Positions 1-64,000 of a DNA stretch of 64,000 nucleotides are shown here, piece by piece. The number at the start of each line of letters is the position of its first letter. The stretch's first letter is position 1. The translations under genes and the position numbers were made by a program. The DNA is from a virus (lineage: Duplodnaviria > Caudoviricetes), in IMG/VR virus record IMGVR_UViG_3300025372_000012, positions 39,501 through 103,500 of that record. One strand, written 5' to 3'. Below the pieces are notes generated by a model. The model did no database searches, was not told where the DNA came from, and saw only the letters and a program-made list of their open reading frames with translations.

Positions 1-19
1 TTAATTTAGATCTCAATAG

Positions 20-44
20 AAAGGACTCTTCGGAGTCCTTTTTT
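20..44 (+). terminator. Intrinsic terminator with C(UUCG)G loop
   Basis: aaaggactc-ttcg-gagtccttt followed by a T-run. Confidence 0.85.
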
Positions 45-51
45 ATTATGG

Positions 52-57
52 TAAATA
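52..57 (+). promoter_or_regulatory. Putative late promoter TAAATA
   Basis: Core of the T4 late promoter TATAAATA, just after the terminator and 4 nt before ATG 62. Confidence 0.55.
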
Positions 58-61
58 TGTG

Positions 62-571
62 ATGAGCACCAAATGGTATACCCCAAATAACTTTATTCAA
101 TATGCAGAAGATGAGTCACATATTCGTTGGAATACAGCCGACTTCGAAGTTGTTAAAACATTAAACGGCGGAGTTCCTTTATCTGCACCGTTGTTACACA
201 TTGCTAGACAACCAAGAAACGATATAACAATGAAAACTTGGTATATACGTGCAACAAATTTTAATTTTCAAAATTTACCACACACAATTTCCGGAATACA
301 ATTTAAGTTTGACGTTGATAGAGTAGGTCGTGTATTTGACGAAACGATTCAATTGACCTTTAACGAAGAATTAATAGGTGAAAATAAATGTTCTATGATT
401 GTAGATCCTACACAAATATATGGAAGCGCTACTGATACGTGGAAGGTTGGAAATATTAATAGCATTGTACAAGATCCTACATTTGGAATAGTAGTAAGAT
501 TAAAAAGTCATCCTCAGTGGCCGCATAAGACTGCTCCTATTTTAAGAGGCATGGCATTGCAGATCTACTAA
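62..571 (+). CDS. Hypothetical protein, probably virion-associated
   Basis: Clean ORF (GTG 59 or ATG 62) heading the structural cluster; no family recognised. Confidence 0.7.
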   Translation: MSTKWYTPNNFIQYAEDESHIRWNTADFEVVKTLNGGVPLSAPLLHIARQPRNDITMKTWYIRATNFNFQNLPHTISGIQFKFDVDRVGRVFDETIQLTFNEELIGENKCSMIVDPTQIYGSATDTWKVGNINSIVQDPTFGIVVRLKSHPQWPHKTAPILRGMALQIY

Positions 572-602
572 ACGAATAAATACCCTAAAGGAATCTAGAA
601 TA

Positions 603-3600
603 ATGACGGGAATAAGAAAATCAGGTACACGATCATTAGCACCAACTAATGGAGCAATACAATCAAGCAGTGGTGTACCATCTTTATCACAGAAAGATAA
701 CGGCGTTACTTTAATCCTATCGTCGGCAACTCAAGTTGGCGGATACTTACAATTGGTGAACAAAACTTCACCTAACCCTGTAATTGTTTTTAAAAATAAT
801 ACACAGAACGTTGGAAATACTAACAATCCTACCGCGACTGACCCTGTTTCCATTGACCAGACAATATTCAGTAACACGGCAGAACGTCAATTAGCCGGTG
901 CATATTTTTCTGGTGGGGTAGGTATTGAGAAAGATTTAGCGGTAGGTGGATTTATCTACGGTCGTATTGCGTCTGCAAACTCTGCCACCACAAGTAGTAA
1001 TATTGTAGTTCTTAAAACAAATGAAAATGCCACTTACTATCCATTGATGACTGATAGTTCGGGTATTATTCAACAAGGTGCTAACTTATATGCTGACATT
1101 TTAAATCAAGATGCTACAGCAGGCGGTTTTAAATATAATCCGTATCTTGGAAAATTAACAACTGAAAGAATCCATGTTGACGGTACAGATAATTCTACCG
1201 GCATAACATCTGGCGCATTAGTAGTTGATGGTGGTGTAGGTATTGCATATGACCTTAACATAGGTGGCAACATATTACCCGCCGCAGCAGATGCTACAAC
1301 AATCGGTGCTGACGGTCTTGAATGGGCTGATGCATACCTTAATAAAGTATACTCAAAATTTGTTGGTAGTACAGCAAGCAACCTAACACTTGCACCGGGC
1401 GCAGGATTAACTGATGTGTTTGGTGATATACGTGTACGTGGTCAAAATCCAATTGGTACTGCTCCTATCATTACAAACACATTGTATGTTACTATGGACG
1501 GCGACGATACTAACGACGGTCGTGCTCAAGATGCTAGCCGTGCTTGCCGTACTATTGGTGGTGCAATGAAGTCACCTTACTATCAACCAGGAACACAAAT
1601 CCTTGTAAGCCCTGGTAGATATTTAGAAAACAATCCTTTAGAAATGAAGCCATATACTTCTGTTAGAGGCAGTGACATTCGTACAACATTTATTGAACCT
1701 ATTAACAAGACACAAGATTTATTCCACGTAAACAGCGGATGCTACTTAAACTACATGAACTTCTTAAACGGACGTAGTGGTCGTTTAGAAGGTGCATATG
1801 ATCAAAGATTTAACCGTGGTGCATATTGTGCAACATTTCCTCCACAAACTGGAGACAATAGAATTGACGTATTCCAATCTCCGTACATTCAAAACTGCAC
1901 AAACCAAAGTGGTCCGTGGTTAAAAGATGGAACAATGTTCTTACCGAACAACACGGTACAAGTTCCTGCGGCAGTTGGTATAGCGTCTTGGCCTGCTAAT
2001 ACAACAACCATTGTTGTTTCTATGTCAACTGGTACATTAAGTATCGGACAAAGTATCAACGTTGGTCAACAAAATCCAGGATTCTTTAATGCTCGTACAT
2101 TGTTGTTGGCCAACAAACCGTTCATTCAAAGTCAAACGGTCGCATGGGTTGATGCAACATTTAACAGCGGATCCTTTACATACGATCAGGCTAAATGTGC
2201 TCGAGACACTGGTCTAATTGTTGATGCAATTGCAACAGATATGTTGTACAATAGCACCAGCGATAGTATGTTTGCAGGTATACAATACTGGAATCAAGAT
2301 ACTTATACTGGAAATATTTCTTCAGAGATAACAGCAACCATTGCGGCTATTAATCATCTTAAAGGAATTGTATTAGGTGAGATAAGCAGTGGTAATCAAT
2401 CAGCAGTTACTACATTGTTTAACGACATAACAGGTATTTTAACATCTGGTACTTCCGGAATAACTGATCAAATAGTTTACGGCGGCCTGCCTACAACTAA
2501 TGCAACAACCGTAAACGATTATAATACATTACAAACAAATAGATCTTCTATACAAGACAGCGTTATTTCTTGGATCAACTCAACATATCCTGGATTAGAT
2601 TATAATCAAGATACCTGCCGAAGAGATACTGGTTTTATTCTAGATAGTGTATGTTTTGATTTGTTGCATGGCGGTAATGTTCAAAGTATCAAGAGCGGTG
2701 TATATTACTACGGATACAGCAACGTAAACACGTTAGCTGGAACTAATGAGGTTCCTGCGACTACAGCGGCTTACAATTTTATCAAGAGTATTATTCCTAA
2801 CATCGTCGAAGGTAACCAATTATTAAAAACTTATCAGTTCAGTGTAAGTCAAGTTACAAACTTGCCTGCTGGTACAGCGCATGAAGTTACTACGCTACAA
2901 AATAACATTGATGTCATAACTGGTATTATTAGAAATGGTCCTGACTATGCTGGACCAAAAACACCTATCAACTTAACTGAGAATACTTCTGTTGGTGTTC
3001 TTAACGCTTACAATTTATTAAAAGCTAACCTTAATTTTATCAAGGCAGAAGTTGTTGCATTCATTAATCAAACAATGAATAATTTTGATTATAACAGACA
3101 ACTTTGCTACAGAGATGCAGGTATTATTGTAGAGAACATGGCTTACGACATGACATTTGGTGGAAACCAAAAGAGTGTTGAAAGTGGTTTAGCATACTAC
3201 CGCGGCGTAACAAGTGTTATTGCTGGACAAGAAACACAGACAATAGGTGCAATTGATTATATTGGATACCTATGCAAGCTAATTGTACAAAATCAAACAT
3301 GTCCAATTTTAATTCCTCCTGCAAATATCCCTACGGCTACACAGGTAATTAACACAGCACTAACTGGTGGTGATATTGTATTGCCTTCAATTGGCAAGTT
3401 GTTTAATATTACAACTAACATTATTGAGAATGGACCAAGTGCGGCACCTGACATCTTTATTAGTACAGGTCCTGATGCCGCATTTGTCAGCGCAGAAGTA
3501 TTGTTACATGCTAATCGTACATTTATTCAAGAAAACGTTGTTAACTATATCAACTATAACTTATGCAATCCTCCTAAAGCACTTCCTTATAATCAGATTA

Positions 3601-6600
3601 AGTGTCGTAGAGATGCAGGAGTTATTCTTGATAGTGTAGCAATTGACTTGTTATTCTCAACTCCTACTAACACACAAGCTACCTTCTCTGGATTACAATA
3701 TTTTAATCAAGGCGGCTATACTGGACAAATTTCTCAAGAAATTAATCCTACAATTGATGCAGTAACATACCTAAGAGATTTAAGTGTTAAGGTTGTACAA
3801 AATATTACTACAGCCACTGATGCCTTAATCGGTGTTACTCGTTATAGCAATGGTGTTCAGACAACATCTAGCAACTATGCAAGTAGTGCAGAAGTTGCTA
3901 CGCTTCGCAGTGAATTTGGAATCATCTTAACTATACTTAACGGACAGACAACTGGATGGACTGATCAAATTGTTCCAAACGGCGGAACTGCAAGTGATTT
4001 AACCAGTGTTCAAAATACCGTAAATCTACTGCAAGAAAATAAAACTTACATGGCGCAAGAAGTTACTGCTTATGTAAATGCTAATAATCCAGGATTTACA
4101 TATTCAACAAGTACATGTCAGCGAGATGTAGGATATATTATTGATAGTTTATGTTTTGATTTACTATACGGCGGTAACCGTCAAGCAATTCAATCTGGTC
4201 TAAGTTATTACACCAGTGCAATTGATACCACGGTAATTCCTAACGAAACTACTGCTACGGTTGATGCATTTACATTTATGGGCAACGTGGCTTCTTCATT
4301 AATACAAGGTATTCCGTACACTCCTTTACAGACCAAAGTTAAACCTGTATTAACGTTACCTGCTAGTGATAGTGTAAACGCCGGAGTTGTAACAACAATT
4401 ATCAGCACAATTACAAATATTGTTGCAAATGGTCCTAGTGTAGCAGCTACACTTGTTCCTGTAACACTATCTCGTTCTACTGCAAGTGCTACAATATCTG
4501 CATTTGAAATATTAACTGCTAACCGTAACTTTATTGTAGAAGAAACTATTTCTTACTTAGACCAAACTTACAATGCTGGATCTTTCAACTATAATCAAGA
4601 ATTATGTTTTAGAGATACAGGATTAATTATTGATGCAGTAAGTCAAGATATATTACTTGGCGGCAATCGCAAGTCTATTGAAGCAGGTTTAAGTTACTGG
4701 AATCAAGGTTATAACTATGTTACAGGCCAAGAGACAACTACTACAGCGGCTATTAATTATGCTAGAGATTTAGCACTACAAGTAATTGCCAATGTGTCAG
4801 TTACTCCTGTTACTGGTACGGTGGCAACACAAGTTATTAATCCGTTCTACCAATACGGTAGCGACTATATGCCGCAACAGGCCGTTGCTCGTAACTTTAA
4901 TATTATAACTAATATCATCGAAAACGGTCCAAGCGTAACTCCGCCAGTTTACATAGGAGGCGGAATTTATCCGTTGACAGGTCCTAACGGTGATATTGTA
5001 ACGGTTGCACCTACCGTTACTTACATCAATAAAGTCTCTACAGGAACTTATGTAGTTGGTTTGAACACAAGTACTATTGGATTTGGTGATAATGCAACTA
5101 TATACTTTGGAAAAACTTACGTTTATCCTTTACAAGATCCGCAAGTCGAAGCATTGAGCTTACAATTAACTGGCAACACAAGCACTTGGAACATTCGTAA
5201 AGTTGATCCAATCGGCGCAATGGGTGGAGCATTAGTTGACGGTGCTGTAGTTAGCGATCGTAGTCCGATTCAATCGTTTGTTTTTGATGCGTTCACACAA
5301 TTGAACCAAGGCGGTATTGGTGTTAAAGTTACCAACAACGGATACGCACAGCTAGTTTCTGTGTTCACAATCTTCTGTTCAGTTGGTGTACAATGTGATA
5401 ACGGCGGTATTGCTTCTATCACAAACTCCAATTGTAACTTTGGTGATATCTCGTTGTTGGCCAAAGGCTATGGTACTAGATCGTTTAGCGGTACGGTATT
5501 CAACCCTGCATATCGTTCATACCCATTTAGCCCACAGGGCACTGATGGTAACGGAAATCCGTTACCATACTTAGACCAATTCTACCCAACAGGCTATTGG
5601 CCAAACAACGGTGGTAAAGTTGAAATATTTGTACCAGACGATGCTAATAGACCACATATTGGTCAGGTTATGGAAATTATTCCTCCAGAAGGACATGTTA
5701 ACGAACAGGGTTTCTCTGGATTCTTAAACACGCAACCTAGCACCAGCACAATTACAACAGGTACAATTAACTTATCGAGTATTGATACCACAGATGTATT
5801 TGTAGGAAATACCGTTTATATTCGAGATCAATTTGGTCGTCAATGGGACGATAATGGTGTATGGTATGCAGCCACAGGAACCGTAGTTGCCGATGTTAAC
5901 TATAACAGCATCAGTTTGAATAAATCGTTAACCAGTGGCGGCGGTGATCCTCTAAATCCAACATACTTTACAATATACTTCTGCGGAAATAGTTACTACA
6001 CCGTACAAACAAGTCAGATTGCAGATCAACCTTATGCACCTAACACTAATATCTTAAGTGCAAATAGTAATTCTTCCTATCAAGGACCTGCAACAAGTCA
6101 AATTTCTGCACACATCTCTGCTGTAAATTATCTACAAACCGTTGTTGACAAAGTTATTGCTAATATTCCTGTAACAAAAACTTCAGGAAATACTAGCACA
6201 CAAGTAATTAATGCAACCGTTGTCGGTGGAGCAGCCGCACAACCATTCATTGACTTGCGATTCAAGTACATGACTGACATTATTGGCGCCGCAAACATTA
6301 CCGCCGCTGAAGCGGTAGTTCCACAAAGTCAAATTACAACTTCAGGTACGGTTCCGACAGGTGCAGGTAATGCAGTTGTGTTGATAACCAGTAACATCGA
6401 TTTCATTGCACAAGAAGTAGCCGCTTATGTTGCAATAAATCTTGCAGGCGGGTTAGGTGACTATAACACTGACAAATGTAATCGAGATATTAAATTAATT
6501 TTACAACAACTAATTTATGATCTACAATCTGGTGGAAACTACAATAGTGTTTACAGCGGATTAAGTTATTGGAGTCGTCTGGGTACTTACCACATTGTTG

Positions 6601-6944
6601 AATTAGGTGAAGCAGTTAACCGACCAGACTTATTCCCAGACGGATCAACAGCTAACTTCTATCAACGTAGTTACATTTCAGCATCTGGTTACTTGTTCGA
6701 ATATGTAGGTGCTGGAACTAACTATGGTGCATTGCCTCAACGAGGCGTTGCTGATCCTGTACAATCTAAAGAAACCGTTCAGTTAAATGCAGGTAAAGTA
6801 TTCTTTACAAGTACTGACCAAAACGGTGACTTCCGAATTGGTCCAGGATTGGTTATTAGTCAAGCAACAGGTGTTCTAAGCGGTAGAACATTTGTACAAT
6901 CATTATATGCAAATATGACACCGTTCATATTGGCAATTGAATAA
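603..6944 (+). CDS. Giant virion structural protein (2113 aa) with beta-helix-like segments and seven helical C-x-R-D repeats
   Basis: Motifs LYVTMDGDDTNDG, SPYIQNC, AFTQLNQGGIG and FTSTDQNGDFRIG resemble large T4-like phage structural proteins; SD aagga and TAAATA upstream. Confidence 0.8.
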   Translation: MTGIRKSGTRSLAPTNGAIQSSSGVPSLSQKDNGVTLILSSATQVGGYLQLVNKTSPNPVIVFKNNTQNVGNTNNPTATDPVSIDQTIFSNTAERQLAGAYFSGGVGIEKDLAVGGFIYGRIASANSATTSSNIVVLKTNENATYYPLMTDSSGIIQQGANLYADILNQDATAGGFKYNPYLGKLTTERIHVDGTDNSTGITSGALVVDGGVGIAYDLNIGGNILPAAADATTIGADGLEWADAYLNKVYSKFVGSTASNLTLAPGAGLTDVFGDIRVRGQNPIGTAPIITNTLYVTMDGDDTNDGRAQDASRACRTIGGAMKSPYYQPGTQILVSPGRYLENNPLEMKPYTSVRGSDIRTTFIEPINKTQDLFHVNSGCYLNYMNFLNGRSGRLEGAYDQRFNRGAYCATFPPQTGDNRIDVFQSPYIQNCTNQSGPWLKDGTMFLPNNTVQVPAAVGIASWPANTTTIVVSMSTGTLSIGQSINVGQQNPGFFNARTLLLANKPFIQSQTVAWVDATFNSGSFTYDQAKCARDTGLIVDAIATDMLYNSTSDSMFAGIQYWNQDTYTGNISSEITATIAAINHLKGIVLGEISSGNQSAVTTLFNDITGILTSGTSGITDQIVYGGLPTTNATTVNDYNTLQTNRSSIQDSVISWINSTYPGLDYNQDTCRRDTGFILDSVCFDLLHGGNVQSIKSGVYYYGYSNVNTLAGTNEVPATTAAYNFIKSIIPNIVEGNQLLKTYQFSVSQVTNLPAGTAHEVTTLQNNIDVITGIIRNGPDYAGPKTPINLTENTSVGVLNAYNLLKANLNFIKAEVVAFINQTMNNFDYNRQLCYRDAGIIVENMAYDMTFGGNQKSVESGLAYYRGVTSVIAGQETQTIGAIDYIGYLCKLIVQNQTCPILIPPANIPTATQVINTALTGGDIVLPSIGKLFNITTNIIENGPSAAPDIFISTGPDAAFVSAEVLLHANRTFIQENVVNYINYNLCNPPKALPYNQIKCRRDAGVILDSVAIDLLFSTPTNTQATFSGLQYFNQGGYTGQISQEINPTIDAVTYLRDLSVKVVQNITTATDALIGVTRYSNGVQTTSSNYASSAEVATLRSEFGIILTILNGQTTGWTDQIVPNGGTASDLTSVQNTVNLLQENKTYMAQEVTAYVNANNPGFTYSTSTCQRDVGYIIDSLCFDLLYGGNRQAIQSGLSYYTSAIDTTVIPNETTATVDAFTFMGNVASSLIQGIPYTPLQTKVKPVLTLPASDSVNAGVVTTIISTITNIVANGPSVAATLVPVTLSRSTASATISAFEILTANRNFIVEETISYLDQTYNAGSFNYNQELCFRDTGLIIDAVSQDILLGGNRKSIEAGLSYWNQGYNYVTGQETTTTAAINYARDLALQVIANVSVTPVTGTVATQVINPFYQYGSDYMPQQAVARNFNIITNIIENGPSVTPPVYIGGGIYPLTGPNGDIVTVAPTVTYINKVSTGTYVVGLNTSTIGFGDNATIYFGKTYVYPLQDPQVEALSLQLTGNTSTWNIRKVDPIGAMGGALVDGAVVSDRSPIQSFVFDAFTQLNQGGIGVKVTNNGYAQLVSVFTIFCSVGVQCDNGGIASITNSNCNFGDISLLAKGYGTRSFSGTVFNPAYRSYPFSPQGTDGNGNPLPYLDQFYPTGYWPNNGGKVEIFVPDDANRPHIGQVMEIIPPEGHVNEQGFSGFLNTQPSTSTITTGTINLSSIDTTDVFVGNTVYIRDQFGRQWDDNGVWYAATGTVVADVNYNSISLNKSLTSGGGDPLNPTYFTIYFCGNSYYTVQTSQIADQPYAPNTNILSANSNSSYQGPATSQISAHISAVNYLQTVVDKVIANIPVTKTSGNTSTQVINATVVGGAAAQPFIDLRFKYMTDIIGAANITAAEAVVPQSQITTSGTVPTGAGNAVVLITSNIDFIAQEVAAYVAINLAGGLGDYNTDKCNRDIKLILQQLIYDLQSGGNYNSVYSGLSYWSRLGTYHIVELGEAVNRPDLFPDGSTANFYQRSYISASGYLFEYVGAGTNYGALPQRGVADPVQSKETVQLNAGKVFFTSTDQNGDFRIGPGLVISQATGVLSGRTFVQSLYANMTPFILAIE
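2178..6575 (+). repeat. Seven copies of a Y-x4-C-x-R-D-x-G-x-I...D-[LMI]-x2-GGN protein repeat
   Basis: Cys codons at 2196, 2616, 3105, 3603, 4116, 4605 and 6477; GGN is present in five of the seven copies. Confidence 0.9.
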
Positions 6945-6955
6945 CAGGAAAGATT

Positions 6956-7339
6956 ATGGCACAATTACCATTAAATAAATTTTTAACAAAGACAGCATTG
7001 TTATCCACTAGCACAACTGCTACGGTTTACACAGCACCGATTGGTGTAACCGCTATTGTGTTAATGGCGCAAGTTGCTAACTTAGACACAAACCCACATG
7101 CTGTAACTTTTGTTCATCATAGATACAAGACTATTCTTCCTGATGCTCAAGGATTTGGCGGACAACCGGGAAACACGGATAGCATGTTAGTTAGTCAATA
7201 TGCTATTCCGCCAAATGATGCAGGAACACCACTAAGTGGAAAATTAATCATCGAAGAATTAGATAGTATTCGTGCGTATGCAGATACAACGGGGACAATG
7301 CAACTAGTATTAAGTATACTACAGACAGCAAATAGTTAA
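6956..7339 (+). CDS. Small virion protein (beta-sandwich type)
   Basis: TVYTAP...AIVLMAQVAN pattern common in structural clusters of T4-like phages; SD agga. Confidence 0.65.
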   Translation: MAQLPLNKFLTKTALLSTSTTATVYTAPIGVTAIVLMAQVANLDTNPHAVTFVHHRYKTILPDAQGFGGQPGNTDSMLVSQYAIPPNDAGTPLSGKLIIEELDSIRAYADTTGTMQLVLSILQTANS

Positions 7340-7353
7340 TAGGACAATATATA

Positions 7354-8547
7354 ATGCCAGGATTATTAAGTGGATCAATTTTAAGATCAGGAGGCAGCGG
7401 TCAGTTTATTAAACTAGCCAATGCTATGCCACAACTTCCTGCAACTCCTAGTACAAGCACAGGCTATACACTTATAACAAGTAATAAGTTAGTAACTACC
7501 TACGCTACCAGCTTAGGTAATGTGCAATTTAATGCTGGTACAATGTATGCCAACGTTACAGGAACAAATTTACAACTAATAGGAACTGGAACTTTAGCAG
7601 TTATAGTATCTGGCGGAACTGCAACAACATCAACTAACACAGGTGCATTAATTGTAGAAGGTGGTTTAGGTGTTTGGGGTAATGCGTATGTTGGTGGTAA
7701 TTTAGTATCTACTATGTTTACAGCAACCACTGCAACAATACAAAATCTTAGTGTACAAAATTTAGATGTATATTCTACAGGCACATTCCACTTAGACTTA
7801 ATTGTAGATCAAAATGCAAATTTGTTTGGCGAATTAAATGTTGTAGGACAAGGATCTGTAAACATATCACCTGAAGCAGCCAGTGTATCTATTGAACCTA
7901 CTTTAGGCGGGTCGGTTACTATTCAACCAAGTCTGACTGGTAATATTAACAATATGATCATTGGGGCATTTGAACCTCAAGATTCATATTTTTTAAATTC
8001 CTATGCAAATAATTTTATAGGTCTTGCTACAACTTCAACTAACATTGCAGGCGGCGCACTAGGTAGTATTCCATACCAAACAAGTAGCGGAACCACTGCA
8101 TTTATCAGCATAGGTAGCACAAATACCGTATTGGTATCAAACGGAACAACTGCAACTTGGTCAAGTTCAGCAAACCTTTCTGTATCAACTGCAACTTATG
8201 CTAACAATGTTTTTGTCACATCAACATCTAGCGGAAACTACGGTGTTATGTTAAGTACTGCAACTAATGCTTACGGAAAGTTAGAAGAGGATTCATACTT
8301 TACATATAATTCTGATTATAGACAACTTTCTGTTCCTAGCATTGAAGCATCGCAGAGCATTTACAGCCGAGAAGGTAACCCTAACGAAAATAATTTATTG
8401 TATGTACCAATATCAACATTATCAATAGGAACACCCCCATCTAATCCACGCCTTGGAGATTTTTGGATCGACCCAAGTCAGGGTGCAACATTCCAGTTTA
8501 TGTTAGACGGTTCAAATAGAGTTTGGGTACAATTTACAGGACTATAA
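7354..8547 (+). CDS. Tail fibre-like protein
   Basis: Thr/Ser/Gly-rich; TGALIVEGGLG and AGGALGSIPYQT motifs; C-terminal TPPSNPRLGDFWID. Confidence 0.7.
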   Translation: MPGLLSGSILRSGGSGQFIKLANAMPQLPATPSTSTGYTLITSNKLVTTYATSLGNVQFNAGTMYANVTGTNLQLIGTGTLAVIVSGGTATTSTNTGALIVEGGLGVWGNAYVGGNLVSTMFTATTATIQNLSVQNLDVYSTGTFHLDLIVDQNANLFGELNVVGQGSVNISPEAASVSIEPTLGGSVTIQPSLTGNINNMIIGAFEPQDSYFLNSYANNFIGLATTSTNIAGGALGSIPYQTSSGTTAFISIGSTNTVLVSNGTTATWSSSANLSVSTATYANNVFVTSTSSGNYGVMLSTATNAYGKLEEDSYFTYNSDYRQLSVPSIEASQSIYSREGNPNENNLLYVPISTLSIGTPPSNPRLGDFWIDPSQGATFQFMLDGSNRVWVQFTGL

Positions 8548-8556
8548 GAGTAGAAT

Positions 8557-9741
8557 ATGTCATCAATATTTCCATCAAATCCGCAAACAGGCGATAAGTT
8601 TATTGTAGGAACCACAACATACCAGTGGACAGGCTATGCTTGGATTAAAGTAAATGAAACTACTCAGTTAACGAACCTTACTCTACAGAATTTAACTGCT
8701 ACAAATTCTATTGTAATCACATCAGCCACTAATGCTGTTAGCACCGTATCAGGTGCATTTCAGGTTGTTGGTGGTGTAGGTATAGGAAAAGATGTATGGA
8801 TTGGCGGTACGGTCCACATTGCAAATACATCAACTATTGCAAATGCAGATATTATAACAACCGCAACATTGGCTCAGTATGTTAAACAACCACTATTTGT
8901 TGCAGGAACTGACACGGTCATTACTACATCTACAGCAGGATATATAGAAACCGTAACAATTTGGAACACAAGTACTCTACAGAGTGTAACAGATAGAGGA
9001 AATGTTACTACAGATTCTATCAAAATTCTCAATGCAACCAGTGCGACATCTACTACAACAGGTGCATTAGTTGTAACAGGTGGCATTGCCGCAGGCGGCG
9101 ACTTATGGTTAGGTGGCACAATTTATAGTGCAGGCGTTCCTGTTATTACAACTTCATCACTTATAAATTCTTTCACAGCTGGTGCTGATATTAAAATTGT
9201 ATCAACAGCGTCCTTAACGGGTCAAGTGTTATTAATTTCTAACACTTCTACACTTGAAACCGTTACAAGCCGCGGTAATAGTACTGATTACCAGGTATTT
9301 TTTACAAATACTACAGAGTCTATATCAAGTAGTACAGGTGCAGTAGTTATCAGCGGCGGTCTAGGAGTAGCAAAACGTATAAACAGCGAAAGTATTCAAA
9401 TCGCTGACACCGTGATGGATTCTGGACAAATTCTGGTAAATACAACTGATACAACGGTAATAGATATGTATCCGACAACACAATATAGGTCGGCAAAGTA
9501 TCTAATACAAATAGATGATGGAACTGGGCCTTCTGCAAATTTTGAAACTATCGAAATTTTGTTGTTGATTGATAACAATAAAACGGTATACGCCACAGAG
9601 TACGCAGTTCTTACATCGAATGGAGAATTAGGTGAGTTTGCGGCGGATGTGCAAAATGACAATATGTTGAGATTATATTTTACGGCATATCAAGCATCAA
9701 ACAAATCATTGAGGATTTTTAGAACTGGAATGACGGTTTAA
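8557..9741 (+). CDS. Tail fibre-like protein
   Basis: Three GAxxVxGG repeats; C-terminal YRSAKYLIQ...TEYA domain. Confidence 0.7.
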   Translation: MSSIFPSNPQTGDKFIVGTTTYQWTGYAWIKVNETTQLTNLTLQNLTATNSIVITSATNAVSTVSGAFQVVGGVGIGKDVWIGGTVHIANTSTIANADIITTATLAQYVKQPLFVAGTDTVITTSTAGYIETVTIWNTSTLQSVTDRGNVTTDSIKILNATSATSTTTGALVVTGGIAAGGDLWLGGTIYSAGVPVITTSSLINSFTAGADIKIVSTASLTGQVLLISNTSTLETVTSRGNSTDYQVFFTNTTESISSSTGAVVISGGLGVAKRINSESIQIADTVMDSGQILVNTTDTTVIDMYPTTQYRSAKYLIQIDDGTGPSANFETIEILLLIDNNKTVYATEYAVLTSNGELGEFAADVQNDNMLRLYFTAYQASNKSLRIFRTGMTV

Positions 9742-9757
9742 CTAAGGAATAAAGAGT

Positions 9758-12700
9758 ATGGCACTAACATCGATCACTAAAGACTTTGTCATAAAAGGCG
9801 GAGCGACCACTGAAGGCGTAAGTTTTGTAACGTCTTCAACGGCACAAACCGGCACGCTACAGGTTAATGGTGGTGCTGCAATTGCAAAAAACTTAATTGT
9901 AGGAACAACAGCAACTATTTGGGGTGCAACCAACTTAAACGGTAACTTAATTGTTTCAGGTTACACCCAAGCAGGGTTACTGAGTGCTACACAATTTACA
10001 GCAACTAACTCAGTTATTACAAACAACGAATCCGTTGGCGGAGTATTTACAGCAACTGGTTCTGCTTTCTTTGGTAATACTTTAAACGTAACAGGTAACG
10101 CAGTATTCAACGGTTCAGTTAATACATTTAGTGGTGCGGTATTTGTCACAGGAACAAACATTCTTACCGTAGGTACAGGCGCAACAACATTAGGTGGTAC
10201 ATTAAGTGTTGCAGGTGTTACATCAATAACAAATAATACCGCAGCAACAACAGGCGGCGCTGGTGCGTTAGTAGTTACAGGTGGTGAATACATTGGCGGC
10301 AACTTAATCGTCATGAGTACCGCAGTAAGTACAGGTACTACATCAAGTAACGCTTTGTACATTGCAGGTGGTATTGGTGTTGATAAAGGTGGTATGTTTG
10401 GTGGTCCAGTAACATTCCGTGACACCGTAACATTTAACGGTACTAGCACATACGTATTTTCTACAAATACATACTACACTGACAACATTATTGAATTACA
10501 TGTACCGCCAACTGGTGTGTATGGTACATGGGCCAGCGATGATGGTAAAGACATTGGTCTACGTTTCCACTATTACGGTAGTGGTGCAGATCAAAACGCG
10601 GCACTTGTTCTAGCAGATGATACAAAATATCTAGAATGGTACGGTACTGGTGCTGAAGCATCGAATGGTGTATTCAGCTCAGCAACATACGGCACATTTA
10701 AAACTGGTAACATTATCTTAAAAGGTATCACTAATGCTACAAATACTACTAGTGGTACTTTACAGGTAGCCGGTGGTGTTGGTGTTGGTCTTGATGTTTA
10801 TGCTGGCGGTAACGTAGGTGGCGGAACATTACAAGGTCGCAACCTAACAACATCGTCAGGATTGTTATTATCTGATGCAAGCGGTAACGTTGTTAACAGC
10901 CCTGTTACATACAACTACTCAACTGGTCGTATGGTTGGTACTGCTGATTATAGCAATACCGCAACAAATATCACAGGTGGTGCAGCTGGAAGTATTCCTT
11001 ATCAAACAGCAGCCGGCCAAACAACTATGTTGGCCGTTGGTACCAACGGTTACATTTTAACGGTATCGGGTGGAAACCCATCTTGGACAGCAGTAAACAA
11101 CTTGACTGCTGGTCTTGCAACAACAGCAACTAACATTGCAGGCGGTTTAAAAGATCAAATAGCATACCAAAGTGCTCCTGGACAGACATCTTTTAACGCA
11201 GGTTTAACATTTAACGGCACAATATTTACTACCACTAACATTGTTGTTAGTAATAACGCAAACGCAACTGGATATAACAACGGTACAGGTGCCTTACAAG
11301 TAGTAGGTGGAGCAGCCGTTGCACAAGACTTGTGGGTTGGTGGTAACATTAACTTACAAGGTAGCTTATATCTAAAAGGCGTTGGTCTTGATCAAATTAC
11401 AGGTACTACTGGTACATTTGTTAACGTATTAATTACTGGAACAAATGCAACATATAGTTCAACATCTGGTGCATTACAAATAACCGGTGGGGTAGGTATT
11501 GGCGGCGGATTGTTTGTTGCTGGTATTGCTACTGCGACAACATTAAGTGTCACAAGTTACTCAACATTAGGTGGTGGAGCAACAATAAATGCCGCAACCG
11601 TAACCAATACTTTAAGTGTTACTGGTTTAACATCACTAAACGGTGGCGCAACTATCAGCGCATTAACCGTTACTAATGCAGCTACCGTAGGAACATCGTT
11701 AGCGGTAACTGGCTTATCGAGCCTTAACGGTGGTGCCACAATTAGTGCGGCTACCGTAACTACTACGCTTGGTGTAACTGGTTTAACATCACTAAACGGT
11801 GGTGCTACAATCAGTGCTACAACAATTACAGGTGCAGCAACCGTAGGAACATCGTTAGCGGTAACTGGTTTAACATCATTAAATGGTGGTGCTACAATCA
11901 GTGCGGCTACCGTAACTACTACTTTAGGTGTAACCGGTTTAACATCATTAAATGGTGGCGCAACTATCAGTGCTACTACCGTTACTGGGGCAGCTACCGT
12001 TGGAACAACATTAGGTGTTACTGGTTTAACATCATTAAATGGTGGTGCTACAATCAGTGCGGCAACGGTTACAAGTACATTACTTGTCAACGGAACTGCT
12101 CCGTCATTGGGTGCATCTAACGCAGGTGCAATACAAACAACCGGTGGTGTAGGTATTGCTAAAGATTTATATGTAGCTTCTACTGCAACTATTGCTGGTA
12201 TAACTTATAGCACTAACACAACTCCTACATTAGGTTCTGCAACAGCAGGTGCAATACAAACAACTGGTGGTGTAGGTATTGCTAAAGATTTATACGTTGG
12301 CACAACTGCTACAATAGGTGGAAACCTTACGGTTACAGGTAACGAAACGGTTACAGGATTCTTAAGTGCTAACGGTGGTGCTACTCTAAGCGCCGCAACG
12401 GTAACTAACAACTTAACGGTAAGCGGAAATGAAACCGTAACAGGTTATAGTTCACTAAACGGTGGTGCTACAATCAGTGCCGCTACCGTAACAAACGGAT
12501 TAACCGTTGGTACAACATTAGGTGTAACCGGTGTAACTACATTAAGTACGGTTAACGCTACTACAGCATCTATTACAAACTTAACGGTTACAGGAACTGC
12601 AAGTTTACCAAGTACGATTACATTGAGTAACTTGACGGTAACTAACTTAACGGTTTCAAATAACGAAACAATTGGCAATAACTTGTTAGTTTCTAACTTG

Positions 12701-13234
12701 TTTACAGCAACAATGGCTGCTACATTGGGTAGTACATTGGCTGTTACAGGTATTGCTAACTTCAACAGCACACAAGATAGTAACGCAACTAACAATGGTT
12801 CTATTGTTACAGCAGGCGGTGTTGGCATTGCTAAGAACTTGGTAGTTGGTATTGCGGCAACAATCGGTAGTGTAAGCACACAAACCGTAGTTCCAGCAAT
12901 TTATACTAACAACAGCTTGTATTCAAGTTATACCAGCGGTTATATTGTAACCAACAGCCAGATTAACTTGGACACATACAGCGCAAGTGCTTATAGAACT
13001 GCAAAATACTTGGTTCAAGTAGTTGACAATACTAAGATCCACGTTGAAGAAATTTTAGTATTCCATGATGGTACAAACGTTTACCTAACTGAATATGCCA
13101 TAGCAACAAGTCAAGGTGAATTAGGTACATTTGATGCTAACTTAACTGGTGGTACCGTTACGCTAACATTCACTGCTAACTATACTCCAACAAACATGAC
13201 TATCAAGATGAATAGAACAACAATTACCTTATAA
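9758..13234 (+). CDS. Long fibre/adhesin-like protein with tandem repeats
   Basis: 1158 aa, Thr/Gly/Ala-rich; VTGLTSLNGGATISA repeats; C-terminal YRTAKYLVQ...TEYA domain. Confidence 0.75.
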   Translation: MALTSITKDFVIKGGATTEGVSFVTSSTAQTGTLQVNGGAAIAKNLIVGTTATIWGATNLNGNLIVSGYTQAGLLSATQFTATNSVITNNESVGGVFTATGSAFFGNTLNVTGNAVFNGSVNTFSGAVFVTGTNILTVGTGATTLGGTLSVAGVTSITNNTAATTGGAGALVVTGGEYIGGNLIVMSTAVSTGTTSSNALYIAGGIGVDKGGMFGGPVTFRDTVTFNGTSTYVFSTNTYYTDNIIELHVPPTGVYGTWASDDGKDIGLRFHYYGSGADQNAALVLADDTKYLEWYGTGAEASNGVFSSATYGTFKTGNIILKGITNATNTTSGTLQVAGGVGVGLDVYAGGNVGGGTLQGRNLTTSSGLLLSDASGNVVNSPVTYNYSTGRMVGTADYSNTATNITGGAAGSIPYQTAAGQTTMLAVGTNGYILTVSGGNPSWTAVNNLTAGLATTATNIAGGLKDQIAYQSAPGQTSFNAGLTFNGTIFTTTNIVVSNNANATGYNNGTGALQVVGGAAVAQDLWVGGNINLQGSLYLKGVGLDQITGTTGTFVNVLITGTNATYSSTSGALQITGGVGIGGGLFVAGIATATTLSVTSYSTLGGGATINAATVTNTLSVTGLTSLNGGATISALTVTNAATVGTSLAVTGLSSLNGGATISAATVTTTLGVTGLTSLNGGATISATTITGAATVGTSLAVTGLTSLNGGATISAATVTTTLGVTGLTSLNGGATISATTVTGAATVGTTLGVTGLTSLNGGATISAATVTSTLLVNGTAPSLGASNAGAIQTTGGVGIAKDLYVASTATIAGITYSTNTTPTLGSATAGAIQTTGGVGIAKDLYVGTTATIGGNLTVTGNETVTGFLSANGGATLSAATVTNNLTVSGNETVTGYSSLNGGATISAATVTNGLTVGTTLGVTGVTTLSTVNATTASITNLTVTGTASLPSTITLSNLTVTNLTVSNNETIGNNLLVSNLFTATMAATLGSTLAVTGIANFNSTQDSNATNNGSIVTAGGVGIAKNLVVGIAATIGSVSTQTVVPAIYTNNSLYSSYTSGYIVTNSQINLDTYSASAYRTAKYLVQVVDNTKIHVEEILVFHDGTNVYLTEYAIATSQGELGTFDANLTGGTVTLTFTANYTPTNMTIKMNRTTITL
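11560..12080 (+). repeat. Tandem repeat array, alternating 87/69-nt units (156-nt superperiod)
   Basis: TGL(T/S)SLNGGATISA units start at 11621, 11708, 11777, 11864, 11933 and 12020. Confidence 0.9.
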
Positions 13235-41682: not shown

Positions 41683-41695
41683 TTAGGAGTTGAGC

Positions 41696-43005: not shown

Positions 43006-43008
43006 TCC

Positions 43009-43473: not shown

Positions 43474-43479
43474 AGTACT

Positions 43480-44652
43480 ATGAACATTGAAGATTTGATG
43501 ATTGCACTGATTTATTCCAACATTAAGAAGAATGATTGGGATACTAAACTTGGTTATAGCTTTTATGACCAAATTAGCCGTGGGTCCGGTTTCACAGAAA
43601 AACAAAGTAACCTGGCAATTAAAATTCTTAGCCGGCATCATATGGCACTGAGTGTGGCTCTTAACAAAAATATTGCTCCATTCCTCGAAAATCCGGTATT
43701 TCGACTACCTATACGTAAAATTAGTGAATCAAAACAATTAAGCGTAGTGGAGCATTCTCAGCATGGCAGAGTGATTAAGGCAATATTTCCTTACAATGAG
43801 AAAACGGTTGAGAATATTAGAAAAAATCGAGACTCAATAGGATCAGCAGTTTGGGACAAAGAGGAAAAATGTTGGTTTTTTGCCCTAAACGAAGAAAGCA
43901 TCAAATTTTTGAGAGATTTAGATAATTTCGGAACAGACGAAATGTTTCAAAATTATGTTTCTCAAATAAAATCAATTGAAGACGAGTTAGAAAATCATAT
44001 ACCAATGTTGGTAATTGAAGACGGTATGCCAAAATTGAAAAATTGTGCCTCATCAGTGCCTATCCTTGAAACAACTGATATTTTGACCTCAATTTTTGAG
44101 GCAAGAAAACGTGGAATTTTTACATGGGACGACACTATCTCTAATTTTTTAGATAGCGACGAAGTTGATCCTCTCACAAGAGATTTCTTAAAAGCCGATC
44201 CCAGTAAGGAAACAGGGCTGGATAAGGATTTACACCAAATTTCTGAATTTTCCGCCATTGTCAAGCACCTACTGCCTATACTGGTTGTAATCCCCGGTGG
44301 TAACGAATTAGAGACAATGAAAATTTCTTGCGAATTTTTGACCAATTTAGGAATTGCCAACGACGAGATGAGTGTGCTGTTTAGACTGCCTTCTACTACC
44401 CATGAAAATTTCAATAATTTTGTGAAATTTAATGAATTGAATTCACCAATTTCTGAAAAAACTAAAGTAGTCTTCGTCAGTAGCAAAATGCCTAAGCCTG
44501 TGTTAAAATCTAAAATTAAATTTCATAGTTCATTGAATTTAGGTTACAGCAACGTGCATTACACTATGAGAAATTTCTTGAAAAATCAGGAAAATTCACT
44601 GATTTATACAAAAGAAAAAGAAATAAGGAATATTAAGTTTGGGTTCATGTAA
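43480..44652 (+). CDS. Hypothetical protein with HARP-like segment
   Basis: FPYNEKTVENIRK...WDKEEKCWFF; overlaps the uvsW start. Confidence 0.65.
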   Translation: MNIEDLMIALIYSNIKKNDWDTKLGYSFYDQISRGSGFTEKQSNLAIKILSRHHMALSVALNKNIAPFLENPVFRLPIRKISESKQLSVVEHSQHGRVIKAIFPYNEKTVENIRKNRDSIGSAVWDKEEKCWFFALNEESIKFLRDLDNFGTDEMFQNYVSQIKSIEDELENHIPMLVIEDGMPKLKNCASSVPILETTDILTSIFEARKRGIFTWDDTISNFLDSDEVDPLTRDFLKADPSKETGLDKDLHQISEFSAIVKHLLPILVVIPGGNELETMKISCEFLTNLGIANDEMSVLFRLPSTTHENFNNFVKFNELNSPISEKTKVVFVSSKMPKPVLKSKIKFHSSLNLGYSNVHYTMRNFLKNQENSLIYTKEKEIRNIKFGFM

Positions 44653-48315: not shown

Positions 48316-48500
48316 TGAACATAGTAAAAGAAGGAAGTTGTTGGTGGGGCGGCGACTCTAAAAAATTTATAGTTCTTGCTGTTATAGAACAAGAAGGAAA
48401 TACTTGGGTGCATTACCGTGACGATGGTAACGAATCACCTAAAGAATATAGTTGTTATCTAGAAAGTTTTCTAAGTAGATTTATTGAGGTACCAAAATGA
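48315..48500 (+). CDS. Small hypothetical protein
   Basis: 61 aa; SD ggag; coupled on both sides. Confidence 0.65.
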   Translation: MNIVKEGSCWWGGDSKKFIVLAVIEQEGNTWVHYRDDGNESPKEYSCYLESFLSRFIEVPK

Positions 48501-48856
48501 CAAGATTAACTGGTTACGTTGAAAAAGGTTGGGGACACGAATATATTTTTGCCACCAATGACAAGTATTGCGGAAAAATAATGAAGTTTAATAAAGACGC
48601 AAAATTTAGTATGCATTTTCACTCAGAGAAAGATGAGACATGGTTTGTATTGAGTGGTAAATTTATTGTTAAATGGATTGATACCGTAACAGCTGACCAC
48701 TACGAACAAGAATTAAACGTAAACGACACGTGGCACAACCCTCCATTTTTCCCTCATCAGGTTATTTGTGTAGAAGAAGGTGCCCTTATCGAAGTTAGTA
48801 CTCCCGATAGTATAGCAGACAATTATCGAGTTGCTAAGGGAGATAGTCAAAAGTGA
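48497..48856 (+). CDS. Cupin sugar isomerase-like protein (M6P/D-lyxose isomerase type)
   Basis: KGWGHE...SMHFHSEKDETWFVLSG...PH...EVST. Confidence 0.8.
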   Translation: MTRLTGYVEKGWGHEYIFATNDKYCGKIMKFNKDAKFSMHFHSEKDETWFVLSGKFIVKWIDTVTADHYEQELNVNDTWHNPPFFPHQVICVEEGALIEVSTPDSIADNYRVAKGDSQK

Positions 48857-49626
48857 AAATATTAATCACAGGGTATAAAGGATTTATCGGGCAGAATCTA
48901 ACAGAATTCTTAAAAGATCACGAGCTTTCTTTTTACGAACCTGGAGATGATTTACCCTTGGTAAATGGACTAGATTGGGTAATTCACCTAGGGGCATTGA
49001 CATCTACAACTGAAAAAAATGTAGGACTAGTGTTAGATCACAATTACGATTTTAGTAGATGGTTAGTAAATGAATGTCTAAAACATAAAGTTAACTTTCA
49101 ATATTCTAGCTCTGCAAGTGTGTATGGACAAAGTAAAAATTTCAACGAAAGTGCTCCTGTAAACCCACAAAGCCCTTACGCATGGAGTAAGTACCTCTTT
49201 GATAGATATATTACAAATTTAGCAGGTGGTTGGCCTATTAAAGTGCAAGGCTTTAGGTACTTCAACGTGTACGGACCTTACGAAGATCATAAAGGCGACC
49301 AAGCAAGTCCTTATTATAAATTTGAGAAACAGGCCAAAGAAAATGGTGTTATAAAGTTATTCGAAGGCAGTGATAAATTTTTTAGAGACTTTGTTCCAGT
49401 TGAAACCGTTTGTAAAATACACAAACATTTTTTAAGTGTTCCTGATACAGGTATCTGGAATGTGGGAACTGGTATAGCTACATCTTTTGAAAGTGTAGCA
49501 CGTTCGATAGCTGATAAGTATTCAGCACGTATAGAATATATTCCAATGCCGGAAAGTTTAAAAGGTCAGTATCAAGAATACACCTGCGCCGATGTAACTT
49601 TATTAAAGACCTACTATAATATATGA
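48853..49626 (+). CDS. hldD: ADP-L-glycero-D-manno-heptose 6-epimerase-like SDR
   Basis: TGYKGFIG, HLGALTSTTE, YSSSASVYG, YAWSK, FRYFNVYGPYEDHKG, RDFV, YQEYTCAD. Confidence 0.85.
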   Translation: MKILITGYKGFIGQNLTEFLKDHELSFYEPGDDLPLVNGLDWVIHLGALTSTTEKNVGLVLDHNYDFSRWLVNECLKHKVNFQYSSSASVYGQSKNFNESAPVNPQSPYAWSKYLFDRYITNLAGGWPIKVQGFRYFNVYGPYEDHKGDQASPYYKFEKQAKENGVIKLFEGSDKFFRDFVPVETVCKIHKHFLSVPDTGIWNVGTGIATSFESVARSIADKYSARIEYIPMPESLKGQYQEYTCADVTLLKTYYNI

Positions 49627-50015
49627 AAATATTTGTCAACGGAACTTTTGATATTTTACATCGTGGGCATCTTGAAATGCTCGAGTATGCAAAAAGCCTC
49701 GGTGTTTATTTGTTAGTTGCTATTGACACAGACAGAAGAGTACAAGAGTTAAAAGGTCTGACTCGGCCTATCAACAATCAATACGATAGGCAGTTTTTTT
49801 TAAAAAAATTAAGATCAGTTGACGATGTTTGGTTTTTTAATAGCGAAGAAGAATTAGAATATATCTTAGAATCCTATAGACCCGATATCATGGTTAAAGG
49901 TAGTGACTACAGAGATAAGCCTATTGTAGGATCTCAATATTGTAAAGAAATAAAATTTTATGAGCACACAGGACATTCTACAACGGGACTCATTCAACGT
50001 ATTACTAATAGGTGA
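49623..50015 (+). CDS. hldC: Heptose-1-phosphate nucleotidyltransferase-like (HldE domain II)
   Basis: NGTFDILHRGH, LKGxxRPIN, VKGSDY, GHSTT. Confidence 0.8.
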   Translation: MKIFVNGTFDILHRGHLEMLEYAKSLGVYLLVAIDTDRRVQELKGLTRPINNQYDRQFFLKKLRSVDDVWFFNSEEELEYILESYRPDIMVKGSDYRDKPIVGSQYCKEIKFYEHTGHSTTGLIQRITNR

Positions 50016-50736
50016 TAGTTGTATCGACGAGTATAAAATTGGAACCATTGATAGGTTAAGTCCTGAAGCCCCAGTACCTGTAATTAAAATTGTCGAAACA
50101 GAAGTTGTGCCAGGAATGGCATCTAACGTCAAAAAGAACTTCGAAAATCTCGGCGTATATGTAGACTTTATAACAAACACTGAAGAAATTAAAAAGACTC
50201 GCTATATAGACAAACGTTCTGGTCAGCACATGTTGCGAGTCGATAGCGAACCTAAAATTACTTCTTGGAATGAACAGACCCCGGCACCGTTTGATCAGTA
50301 TGATGTAGTTGTTGTCAGCGACTACAACAAAGGTTTCTTAACCTATGAGAATATAGAACATATTCTTAAATCGGTTAAGTGTCCAGTATTCATTGATACT
50401 AAGAAAACACAACTAGCCGACATAAGTGCCGGACATGCCTACTTTAAAATTAACGAGCTCGAATCAAAGAACGCTAGAAGTATTCCGAGCAATCTGATTA
50501 TAACTATGGGCGACAGAGGTGCATACTATAATGGACAAATATTTACAACTACCCCTGTAGAAGTTACCGATGTTTGCGGCTGCGGAGATACTTTTTTGGC
50601 TGCATTGGCCGTCCAATATCTATATACAAAAAGCATAGAAAAAAGTATAATGTTTGCTAATGCCGCGGCGGGAATTACCGTAAAACATAGAGGAAACTAT
50701 GCACCGTCATATGACGAAATTAGGAAATTAAAATGA
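49960..50736 (+). CDS. hldA: Heptose-7-phosphate kinase-like PfkB protein (HldE domain I)
   Basis: IGDSCIDEY...RLSPEAPVPV, SDYNKG, DVCGCGDTF. Confidence 0.85.
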   Translation: MSTQDILQRDSFNVLLIGDSCIDEYKIGTIDRLSPEAPVPVIKIVETEVVPGMASNVKKNFENLGVYVDFITNTEEIKKTRYIDKRSGQHMLRVDSEPKITSWNEQTPAPFDQYDVVVVSDYNKGFLTYENIEHILKSVKCPVFIDTKKTQLADISAGHAYFKINELESKNARSIPSNLIITMGDRGAYYNGQIFTTTPVEVTDVCGCGDTFLAALAVQYLYTKSIEKSIMFANAAAGITVKHRGNYAPSYDEIRKLK

Positions 50737-62655: not shown

Positions 62656-63533
62656 GCTCGTTTCATACAGGTAGTTGCCGCCATAGCTTTCCACATTTGG
62701 GGGAATGCCTTACGCAGGTCTGCAATCTTGAGCACCATACGCAGGCTGAGCTCACGCAGACGATCCTTGTTGGCACTGATGAAGTCCAAGACTTCTACTT
62801 TGGTAACTTCTTCAAACTCATAGCGATCCAACATGCCCTTTTGAACGATGTTGTTGATCCACAGCATCTTCTCACGCTGAGTATCCATGTCCAAGTCCAT
62901 GTAGTGGCAACGGCTTTCCAGAGCGTCCAAGTGGCTACGGAGCTTCTTTGAACGAACGTGCTCAAACTTGATGTTGGTGATAAAGATAGCGGCACCCTTG
63001 AACTCGAAGCGATCTGGAATGCCTTCTGAGCGCAGGATTCGGCTGTCAGTGTTCCAGCTGATGAAACGACGGGGACTTGAGTCCAGGGCGCCCTTGAGAA
63101 TGTTCAAGCTCAGTTCTTCTTGCAGGATGTCGTCGCAGTCATCAAACACCAGAACATGCTTTGAGTCAGAGAACTCGTAGAGCTTAGAGTAGAGTCCAAT
63201 GCTGGACATGGCACCCTTGACAACTTCAAACTTGGGTTTGCGCTCGCCCAAGGTGTCAAAGAGTCCGTCCTTTTGCAGTACTGCTTCAACGTTGTGGCTC
63301 TTGCCCACGCCTGGAGGGCCACTGACGATCATAGCACGAACATCACCGCGTTTGACTGCCTTGGTCATCTCAGTGAGAATGTCAAAGCGCTCATTCAAGC
63401 GATTGAGGATTGCTTCGTCAGACTCAGTGGCAATTGCGGCTTCTTTGGCTTTGATTGCATCAGTGTCAAACTCAATAACGTGACTGGTTGTGATAGCCTT
63501 GGAAGGCTTGCGAGCGGCGGAGGTACGTGCCAT
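62652..63533 (-). CDS. AAA+ / P-loop ATPase
   Basis: GPPGVGKS, LVFDDCD, IFITN, ALESR. Confidence 0.85.
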   Translation of the reverse strand: MARTSAARKPSKAITTSHVIEFDTDAIKAKEAAIATESDEAILNRLNERFDILTEMTKAVKRGDVRAMIVSGPPGVGKSHNVEAVLQKDGLFDTLGERKPKFEVVKGAMSSIGLYSKLYEFSDSKHVLVFDDCDDILQEELSLNILKGALDSSPRRFISWNTDSRILRSEGIPDRFEFKGAAIFITNIKFEHVRSKKLRSHLDALESRCHYMDLDMDTQREKMLWINNIVQKGMLDRYEFEEVTKVEVLDFISANKDRLRELSLRMVLKIADLRKAFPQMWKAMAATTCMKRA

Positions 63534-63565
63534 TTGTGTTTCCTTTAGTGTGTTGCGAAGTATGT

Positions 63566-63594
63566 ATTATAACACCAATAGGGCCTGTTGTCAA
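63566..63594 (-). promoter_or_regulatory. Consensus sigma70 early promoter within a stem-loop
   Basis: TTGACA-17 nt-TATAAT; -35 flanked by atagggc/gccctat. Confidence 0.85.
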
Positions 63595-63613
63595 GCCCTA
63601 TCAGTCTTACTTA

Positions 63614-63961
63614 TTAATCCAAACGCGAGCCTGCGTAGCAAGACTCTAACCCCAACTTAGTGCGGAGCACCTCTGCGTAGGCTTCTGCACCTGCTTCCAG
63701 GATGCCCACAGATTGCACACCTGCCTTGCTGGGATTCCATAATTGCAGTGCGCCGTCCCAGCTCTTGCGGAAGCCTGCTGAAGCCAATGCCTTGCCCAGT
63801 TTAGAGTTACTACGGACCTTGTAGACGTTGACCCAAGCAAAGCCACAAGCGTCACGATCACCATACTTCTGGAGTGCTTCTTTAGCGGCTGTACGGGCTT
63901 GGATGCCAGCTTCGTTGAGTGCGTCTTGTACGGCTTCTAGGTTAAATGCTAGTGCAGTCAT
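63614..63961 (-). CDS. Hypothetical early protein
   Basis: ACGFAWV...SRLD; SD aaggag. Confidence 0.75.
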   Translation of the reverse strand: MTALAFNLEAVQDALNEAGIQARTAAKEALQKYGDRDACGFAWVNVYKVRSNSKLGKALASAGFRKSWDGALQLWNPSKAGVQSVGILEAGAEAYAEVLRTKLGLESCYAGSRLD

Positions 63962-63987
63962 TTAGTGCTCCTTAGTGCGTTGTTGAT

Positions 63988-64000
63988 GTATGTATTATAA
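63988..64000 (-). promoter_or_regulatory. Second early promoter, -10 part only (cut by window edge)
   Basis: TTATAATACATAC is identical to the 63560-63572 copy. Confidence 0.65.

Follow-up and report, generated by a model that had tools for sequence, protein, structure and literature searches.

Complete absence of the word ACWGT from an uncultured freshwater jumbo phage, probably through avoidance of host restriction

A T4-like phage genome free of ACWGT

The DNA considered here is a stretch of 64,000 nucleotides (the window) from virus record IMGVR_UViG_3300025372_000012, and its subject is a short word, ACWGT (ACAGT or ACTGT), which is missing from the whole stretch (positions 1 to 64,000, irrespective of strand), from the remainder of the record, and from a separate 128-kb record, G002, as established by 5-mer counts and shuffles. 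The window is the last 64 kb of the 103,500-bp record, referred to as G000, of which 39.5 kb lies upstream; its G+C content is 39.7%. Matches in PHROGs, Pfam, and NCBIfam identify the genes of a T4-like myovirus, including portal gp20, capsid gp23, prohead protease, a 1013-aa sheath, tube, and baseplate proteins, along with a large terminase, a gp32-like single-stranded DNA-binding protein (SSB), UvsX, helicases, a primase, SbcCD-like proteins, and giant fibre open reading frames (ORFs). The large terminase (TerL; 37019-38626, + strand), which served as the marker for collecting and placing relatives, shares 54% identity with that of the Pseudomonas jumbo phage PA5oct, 48-49% with those of Atu_ph07 and Phosso, and 42% with the Rak2-like group. 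These jumbo myoviruses are the closest cultured relatives by this gene, and the T4-like portal, capsid, sheath, gp32-like SSB, and UvsX are shared with PA5oct and other jumbo myoviruses, yet the relation is only distant. A megablast search with 20 kb against 50,697 phage records gave no match. The source is an uncultured, probably lytic freshwater jumbo phage of the T4-like myovirus type.

The first-pass annotation had reported from inspection by eye that neither ACAGT nor ACTGT occurs in the window, and exact counting agrees: there are no sites on either strand, nor any elsewhere in G000. Three expectations were used for comparison, namely dinucleotide-preserving shuffles of the window, a maximal-order Markov model for 5-mers, and shuffling of synonymous codons inside each ORF. 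With sites scored on both strands, 100 dinucleotide shuffles gave a mean of 181.4 both-strand matches (sd 10.2), or about 91 sites, and the Markov model predicts 74.0 occurrences of ACAGT and 54.0 of ACTGT, so that the earlier rough estimate of some 100 or more expected sites was right. The two words are the most under-represented 5-mers in the window and the only ones absent among all 1024, the next lowest counts being 3. The 4-mers embedded in them are common (ACAG 374, CAGT 215, ACTG 298, CTGT 148), as are the words with C or G at the centre (ACCGT 110 and ACGGT 119, or 229 ACSGT altogether).

The same holds beyond the window. Across G000 the Markov expectation is 106.7 + 93.9, with a second Markov figure of 208.5, and 200 codon shuffles of its ORFs gave 227.6 ± 9.5 sites with a minimum of 197, all against an observed count of zero. 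For G000 and G002 together (231.8 kb), 100 codon shuffles gave 402 ± 14.5 sites, again against none. Words one mismatch away from ACWGT have observed/expected ratios of 0.99-1.48 and are thus not depleted, and ACSGT is enriched 1.77-fold in the two contigs (649 observed, 366 expected). These analyses confirm that the absence of ACWGT is a real and extreme under-representation of a short strand-symmetric word. Dinucleotides, shorter k-mers, and codon usage are ruled out as its cause, since the shuffle, Markov, and codon-shuffle expectations all lie far above zero; the Markov and codon-shuffle comparisons were those by which the first-pass annotation had proposed to check its claim.

Other palindromes are also scarce in the two contigs. 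GTGCAC (1 observed, 32 expected), TGCGCA (0 and 19), and AAGCTT (6 and 75) are nearly or fully purged, and depletion to about half is seen for CTGCAG (24 and 76), AGCT (416 and 815), and GCWGC (201 and 380). The half-depletion of AGCT and GCWGC may be the fading trace of an earlier regime, or may reflect weaker current selection.

Removal of the sites

Codon choice next to would-be sites departs sharply from codon choice elsewhere. Thr-Val pairs are written with ACC (109) or ACG (72) in all 181 cases, as the first-pass annotation had described from the pairs it inspected, yet 79% of Thr codons overall are ACA or ACT. Its observation on Ser was equally sound, as AGT follows NAC in 0 of 124 cases, against 33% of Ser codons overall. 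Cys after NAC is TGC in 7 of 7 cases, Gln in the context A|CAR|T is CAA in 93 of 93, and CTG is used for Leu in the same A|..|T context in 0 of 162. The pattern is easily seen in a Thr-Val-rich stretch of a 1158-aa structural ORF (9758-13234, + strand), where each Thr-Val pair is ACC-GTN or ACG-GTN and 24 ACSGT lie between 11600 and 12700; the examples cited earlier are present there, GCAACCGTA at 11837 and TTAACGGTT at 12581 and 12647. Non-coding DNA is affected as well, with no sites in 15.4 kb of G000 and G002, where base composition predicts about 33. Elimination therefore acts at the DNA level, through synonymous choices in all three frames and on both coding strands and in non-coding DNA, and much of the lost ACWGT has turned into ACSGT. 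Because the word is gone from all frames, from both strands, and from non-coding DNA, selection must act on double-stranded DNA, symmetrically and with the proteins left untouched; because ACSGT is enriched, the agent has to distinguish a central W from a central S.

Selection on RNA has some precedent, as MazF-type toxins have five-base RNA motifs, and a host endoribonuclease of the toxin type, cleaving phage transcripts at ACAGU or ACUGU, would in principle leave a mark in coding sequence. A single such motif would spare its reverse complement in sense strands, however, and genes in either orientation have neither ACAGT nor ACTGT on their sense strand; the 15.4 kb of non-coding DNA lacks both words as well. 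An explanation at the RNA level is accordingly very improbable.

The complete loss of a word in a single record, shared by no relative, would also arouse suspicion of an artefact of sequencing, base calling, assembly, or data processing that deleted or miscalled it. Independent data speak against this. Words of a 10-kb stretch were found in fifteen freshwater metagenome runs, two of which are possibly the source of the record, and four other runs were compared over 20 kb of the contig. Among these, runs X3 (from 2012) and X4 are not flagged as possible sources; within 25000-44525, pieces from X3 are 1053-4381 nt long and show 0-7 differences, those from X4 are 713-1701 nt long and show 0-1, and near-identical contigs also occur in runs X5 and X6. 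Other samples and years thus give near-identical assemblies, and a second record, G002, bears the same signature. Reading frames are intact, with 96% of G000 coding and ORFs of up to 3933 aa. The replacements are synonymous and diverse: an alignment of 18.5 kb with the nearest relative, locus L001, has 79.5% nucleotide identity and includes 41 ACWGT sites of L001, in whose place many different words stand here; the changes hit all five letters of the word, which a systematic miscall would not produce. Reciprocally, all 39 AGCT sites of this genome are altered in L001 over the same alignment. Taken together, these observations leave an artefact with next to no probability.

Related genomes and their purged palindromes

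Relatives were collected as 320 loci, of which 80 viral and 80 metagenome loci were found with the terminase, 80 with a polymerase, and 80 with a ribonucleotide reductase. ACWGT is kept in 319 of them, and the exception, L187, belongs to G002. None of the terminase-found relatives avoids the word (0 of 80 viral and 0 of 80 metagenome loci); L001, with 96% TerL identity, has 48 ACWGT sites in 21.6 kb, and the complete relative G001 has 866 where 915 are expected.

L187 was found by using the family-B DNA polymerase of G001, a genome of 322.5 kb, as a query against viral contigs, and was the only one of the 80 polymerase loci with no ACWGT (29 expected). Its record, G002 (128,309 bp), has no ACWGT against 199 expected, and ACAGT and ACTGT are again the sole absent 5-mers. 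It shares the further deficits of G000, with observed/expected counts of 0/13.8 for GTGCAC, 0/8.9 for TGCGCA, and 187/365 for AGCT. The two records show no megablast overlap and occupy complementary, non-overlapping parts of the G001 map: proteins of G000 are collinear with about 122-236 kb of G001, and those of G002 with about 261-322 kb and 7-35 kb. CheckV completeness is 29% and 31% for the two records, estimates that put the full genome at about 350-400 kb. From signature and synteny we infer that G002 comes from elsewhere in this phage genome or from that of a very close phage. A third ACWGT-free piece was not found among the 80 loci collected with the ribonucleotide reductase of G001.

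Many relatives lack palindromes of their own. AGCT is purged (observed/expected) in L001 (0/47), L086 (0/51), and L085 (0/40) and likewise in L057, L130, L138, L146, and others, and GCWGC in L005 (0/21), L116 (0/31), L115 (0/36), L088, and others. Other purges include CATG in L064 (0/53), GCGC in L002 (0/15), and ACGT in L212 (0/27), and further examples are CTAG in L227 (0/36), GTAC in L310 (0/32), GTWAC in L208 (0/23), and CTWAG in L231 (0/23) and L242 (0/13). CGCG, TGCA, and TCGA are likewise fully purged in some relatives of the clade (loci L001-L360). Several of these motifs are sites of known Type II enzymes; no enzyme is known to us for GTWAC or CTWAG.

A TerL tree was built from 107 rows (this genome and 106 related loci of at least 10 kb; FastTree, midpoint root). 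One or more 4- or 5-mer palindromes are purged in 35 of the rows, 34 of which are related loci, and the tree requires no fewer than 26 changes of state. The AGCT-free L001 is the sister of this genome on it, and the GCGC-free L002 and the AGCT-free L085 and L086 stand next to them. The loss of ACWGT is restricted to this lineage, and sister lineages purge other palindromes in parallel.

Candidate agents and host

The loss of ACWGT is probably a case of restriction-site avoidance. As the agent we infer a restriction enzyme, and one encoded by the host: a Type II-like endonuclease that would cleave ACWGT when it is unmethylated and discriminate between W and S at the central position. Every ACWGT site would then reduce the chance that injected DNA survives, and individual substitutions abolishing a site, synonymous or in non-coding DNA, would be fixed successively until no site remained. 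Enzymes specific for GTGCAC and TGCGCA are probably present in this host or host range as well. Host restriction is favoured because relatives purge other classical restriction palindromes in the same way, and a passive strategy of this kind fits the lack of any methyltransferase or restriction-modification component in the scanned ORFs.

Phage genomes lacking the site of a host enzyme are familiar, the GATC-free staphylococcal phage K being a classic case. W-centred Type IIP enzymes are likewise well known and include EcoRII/BstNI (CCWGG), AvaII (GGWCC), TseI/ApeKI (GCWGC), and TfiI (GAWTC), which share the NNWNN architecture of ACWGT and differ in the outer dinucleotides; GCWGC, the TseI/ApeKI-type site, is itself wholly purged in the sister lineages L005, L088, L116, and others. 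HpyCH4III, Tsp4CI, and TaaI are Type II enzymes specific for ACNGT, which resembles ACWGT in its AC..GT outer bases and five-base symmetry and is cut with any central base. An ACNGT enzyme is excluded as the agent, since ACSGT is enriched here, not avoided; the first-pass annotation had drawn the same conclusion from the abundance of ACSGT in the window.

Passages in Rusinov et al. (2018; PMC6286503) describe avoidance mostly at orthodox Type II sites and in non-temperate phages, with (almost) complete elimination of sites in about a tenth of viral genomes. The silent, lineage-specific, and complete loss of several words together seen here resembles the avoidance in lytic double-stranded DNA phages treated in those passages. 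It differs in that no published cognate enzyme for ACWGT was found, in that the phage is an uncultured jumbo phage, and in the roughly 400 expected sites that are gone. Searches of the main texts of 8.4 million papers and preprints (supplements and REBASE lay outside the search) found no ACWGT enzyme or methylation motif, in agreement with the first-pass annotation, which knew of no characterised enzyme of this specificity; among the matches listed, the word occurs as a substring of degenerate primers. A search joining "restriction site avoidance" with "jumbo phage" found no literature. The phenomenon is of a well-known kind, with a target word that is apparently undescribed.

Because ACAGT and ACTGT are reverse complements, an agent that reads a single asymmetric word, such as a Type IIS or Type III system, a defence that targets single-strand DNA, or another system outside restriction-modification, would leave the same imprint as one that reads a palindrome, and sequence data cannot separate the two. 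The words co-purged here and in relatives are, however, true palindromes, and homodimeric Type IIP enzymes typically have sites of five bases with W at the centre. For Type III sites, Rusinov et al. (2018) report avoidance only very rarely, and for Type I or IIG sites they observed none. An asymmetric-word agent is thus rated as unlikely, below a palindromic Type II-like enzyme.

The first-pass annotation had also left room for the phage's own host-DNA nuclease and had named three candidate genes, none of which tracks ACWGT avoidance across related loci, so that all three are rejected as determinants. The first is a GIY-YIG/NUMOD3 homing endonuclease (26854-27492, - strand; phrog_655, 1.8e-49, and NUMOD3), which is sporadic, with homologues in 8 of 108 distinct related loci (10 kb or longer), and lies in a strain-variable region where contigs of other runs break or diverge (26843-27548). 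The second is a small Cys-rich HNH-like ORF of 136 aa (29061-29471, - strand), a core gene of the clade with a weak HNH_3 match (E 0.0013), whose homologues occur in 57 of the 108 loci regardless of which motif is avoided, or whether any is. Its span covers the initial 62 bases of the longest ORF for the sheath (29410-32451, + strand, TTG start), and the true sheath start probably lies further downstream. The third is a TnsA-like PD-(D/E)xK endonuclease of 147 aa (34564-35007, + strand; PF08722, 4.5e-23), a core gene near the terminase with homologues in 97 of the 108 loci (64-86% identity in the 30 best listed) and present alike in AGCT-, GCGC-, and GCWGC-avoiders and in non-avoiders.

A phage-encoded ACWGT-specific nuclease that degrades host DNA, the phage genome being safe because it carries no sites and not because it is modified, would be compatible with several other facts. 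Across both contigs there are several nucleases (a SegE-type GIY-YIG enzyme, further homing endonucleases, UvdE, and SbcCD-like, TnsA-like, and HNH-like proteins) and many unannotated ORFs, and the two records leave about 40% of the genome uncovered. When the ORFs in the 232 kb covered were scanned with Pfam, NCBIfam, and PADLOC, no DNA methyltransferase and no component of a restriction-modification system was found, so self-protection would need avoidance. The same scans gave no match to a restriction-endonuclease family, however; the TnsA-like and HNH-like genes belong to the core of relatives in which ACWGT is at its normal level, and homing endonucleases occur only sporadically. The purge in this phage extends to no fewer than three unrelated words (ACWGT, GTGCAC, and TGCGCA), which would call for several nucleases, and sister lineages change their motif over short distances, as host switches would produce. 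A phage nuclease is therefore an unlikely explanation. If it were true, the clade's mosaic of purged palindromes would record a fast-diversifying family of phage "attack" nucleases. Of the two agents that the first-pass annotation had offered, a host defence or a phage nuclease, selection against exactly ACWGT stands, with other palindromes purged in relatives, and the three named nucleases do not.

Several points weigh against the reading of host restriction. The 83 ORFs of G000 (62 on the + strand, 21 on the - strand) are crude greedy longest-ORF calls covering 96% of the record, so the codon-context counts are approximate. None of the 40 listed of 251 variants creates ACWGT, but only 0.44 would be expected to do so and the comparison is uninformative. 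G002 and G000 are linked by a shared signature and complementary synteny, without sequence overlap. The searches identified neither the host nor an ACWGT-specific enzyme, and with some 40% of the phage genome unseen and many ORFs without annotation there is room for an agent of the phage's own.

If confirmed, host restriction as the cause would predict that some uncultured freshwater bacterium has a new Type II specificity, ACWGT with W strictly required. Combined with methylation data from metagenomes, the three-word fingerprint of ACWGT, GTGCAC, and TGCGCA could tie the jumbo phage to its host. The fast-changing purged palindromes of the clade would be a natural record of restriction arms races between phages and hosts, and a possible cultivation-free route to enzyme specificities, including the W-centred GTWAC and CTWAG.

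Evidence on the host comes from gene content. The heptose-pathway genes, CsgG/CsgF, and TctC, together with the proteobacterial hosts of the cultured relatives, are consistent with a Gram-negative freshwater host. TerL relatives occur at 57-64% identity in six metagenome-assembled genomes (MAGs), assigned to Polynucleobacter, Legionellales, Aquiluna, Lishizhenia, Chitinophaga, and Crocinitomicaceae. The nearest atlas clusters of an AlgH-like protein are viral. A lineage-specific TctC-like gene reaches at best 33% identity in the Polynucleobacter MAG and, among 300 genomes sampled from the class to which this MAG belongs, none gave a match at E<=1e-30. No tRNA genes were found in G000.

The remaining gene content is varied. 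A sugar-nucleotide cluster in the window (48497-50736, + strand) encodes a cupin, an ADP-glyceromanno-heptose 6-epimerase-like protein (TIGR02197, 2.7e-66, below the cut-off), and a heptose-7-phosphate kinase-like PfkB protein, which suggests a heptose pathway carried by the phage. Giant ORFs include one of 3933 aa without a Pfam match (354-12155 of G000, - strand) and, in the window, two with tail-fibre-like matches, of 2113 aa (603-6944, + strand) and 1860 aa (16870-22452, + strand).

G002 encodes a heme oxygenase and a ferredoxin-dependent bilin reductase, along with GTP cyclohydrolase I and 6-pyruvoyl-tetrahydropterin synthase-like, QueC-like, and radical SAM proteins, the last four of which appear to form a 7-deazaguanine-type pathway. 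These bilin and 7-deazaguanine-type genes lie at 2640-3828 of L251, 2368-3552 and 6435-7007 of L253, 13285-14112 of L254, and 6393-6899 of L255. TGT/DpdA, as used in 7-deazaguanine modification of DNA, was not found in G000, G001, or G002. The auxiliary load of G002 (L251-L256) is rich, comprising CsgG/CsgF curli secretion parts, the TctC-like binding protein, a CHASE2-cyclase, ClpP, ClpS, a ClpB-like ATPase, DnaJ, peptide deformylase, Hsp20, ferritin, PhoH, and UvdE, as well as five fatty-acid desaturase-like ORFs, several B12-binding radical SAM proteins, and Asp/Arg hydroxylases.

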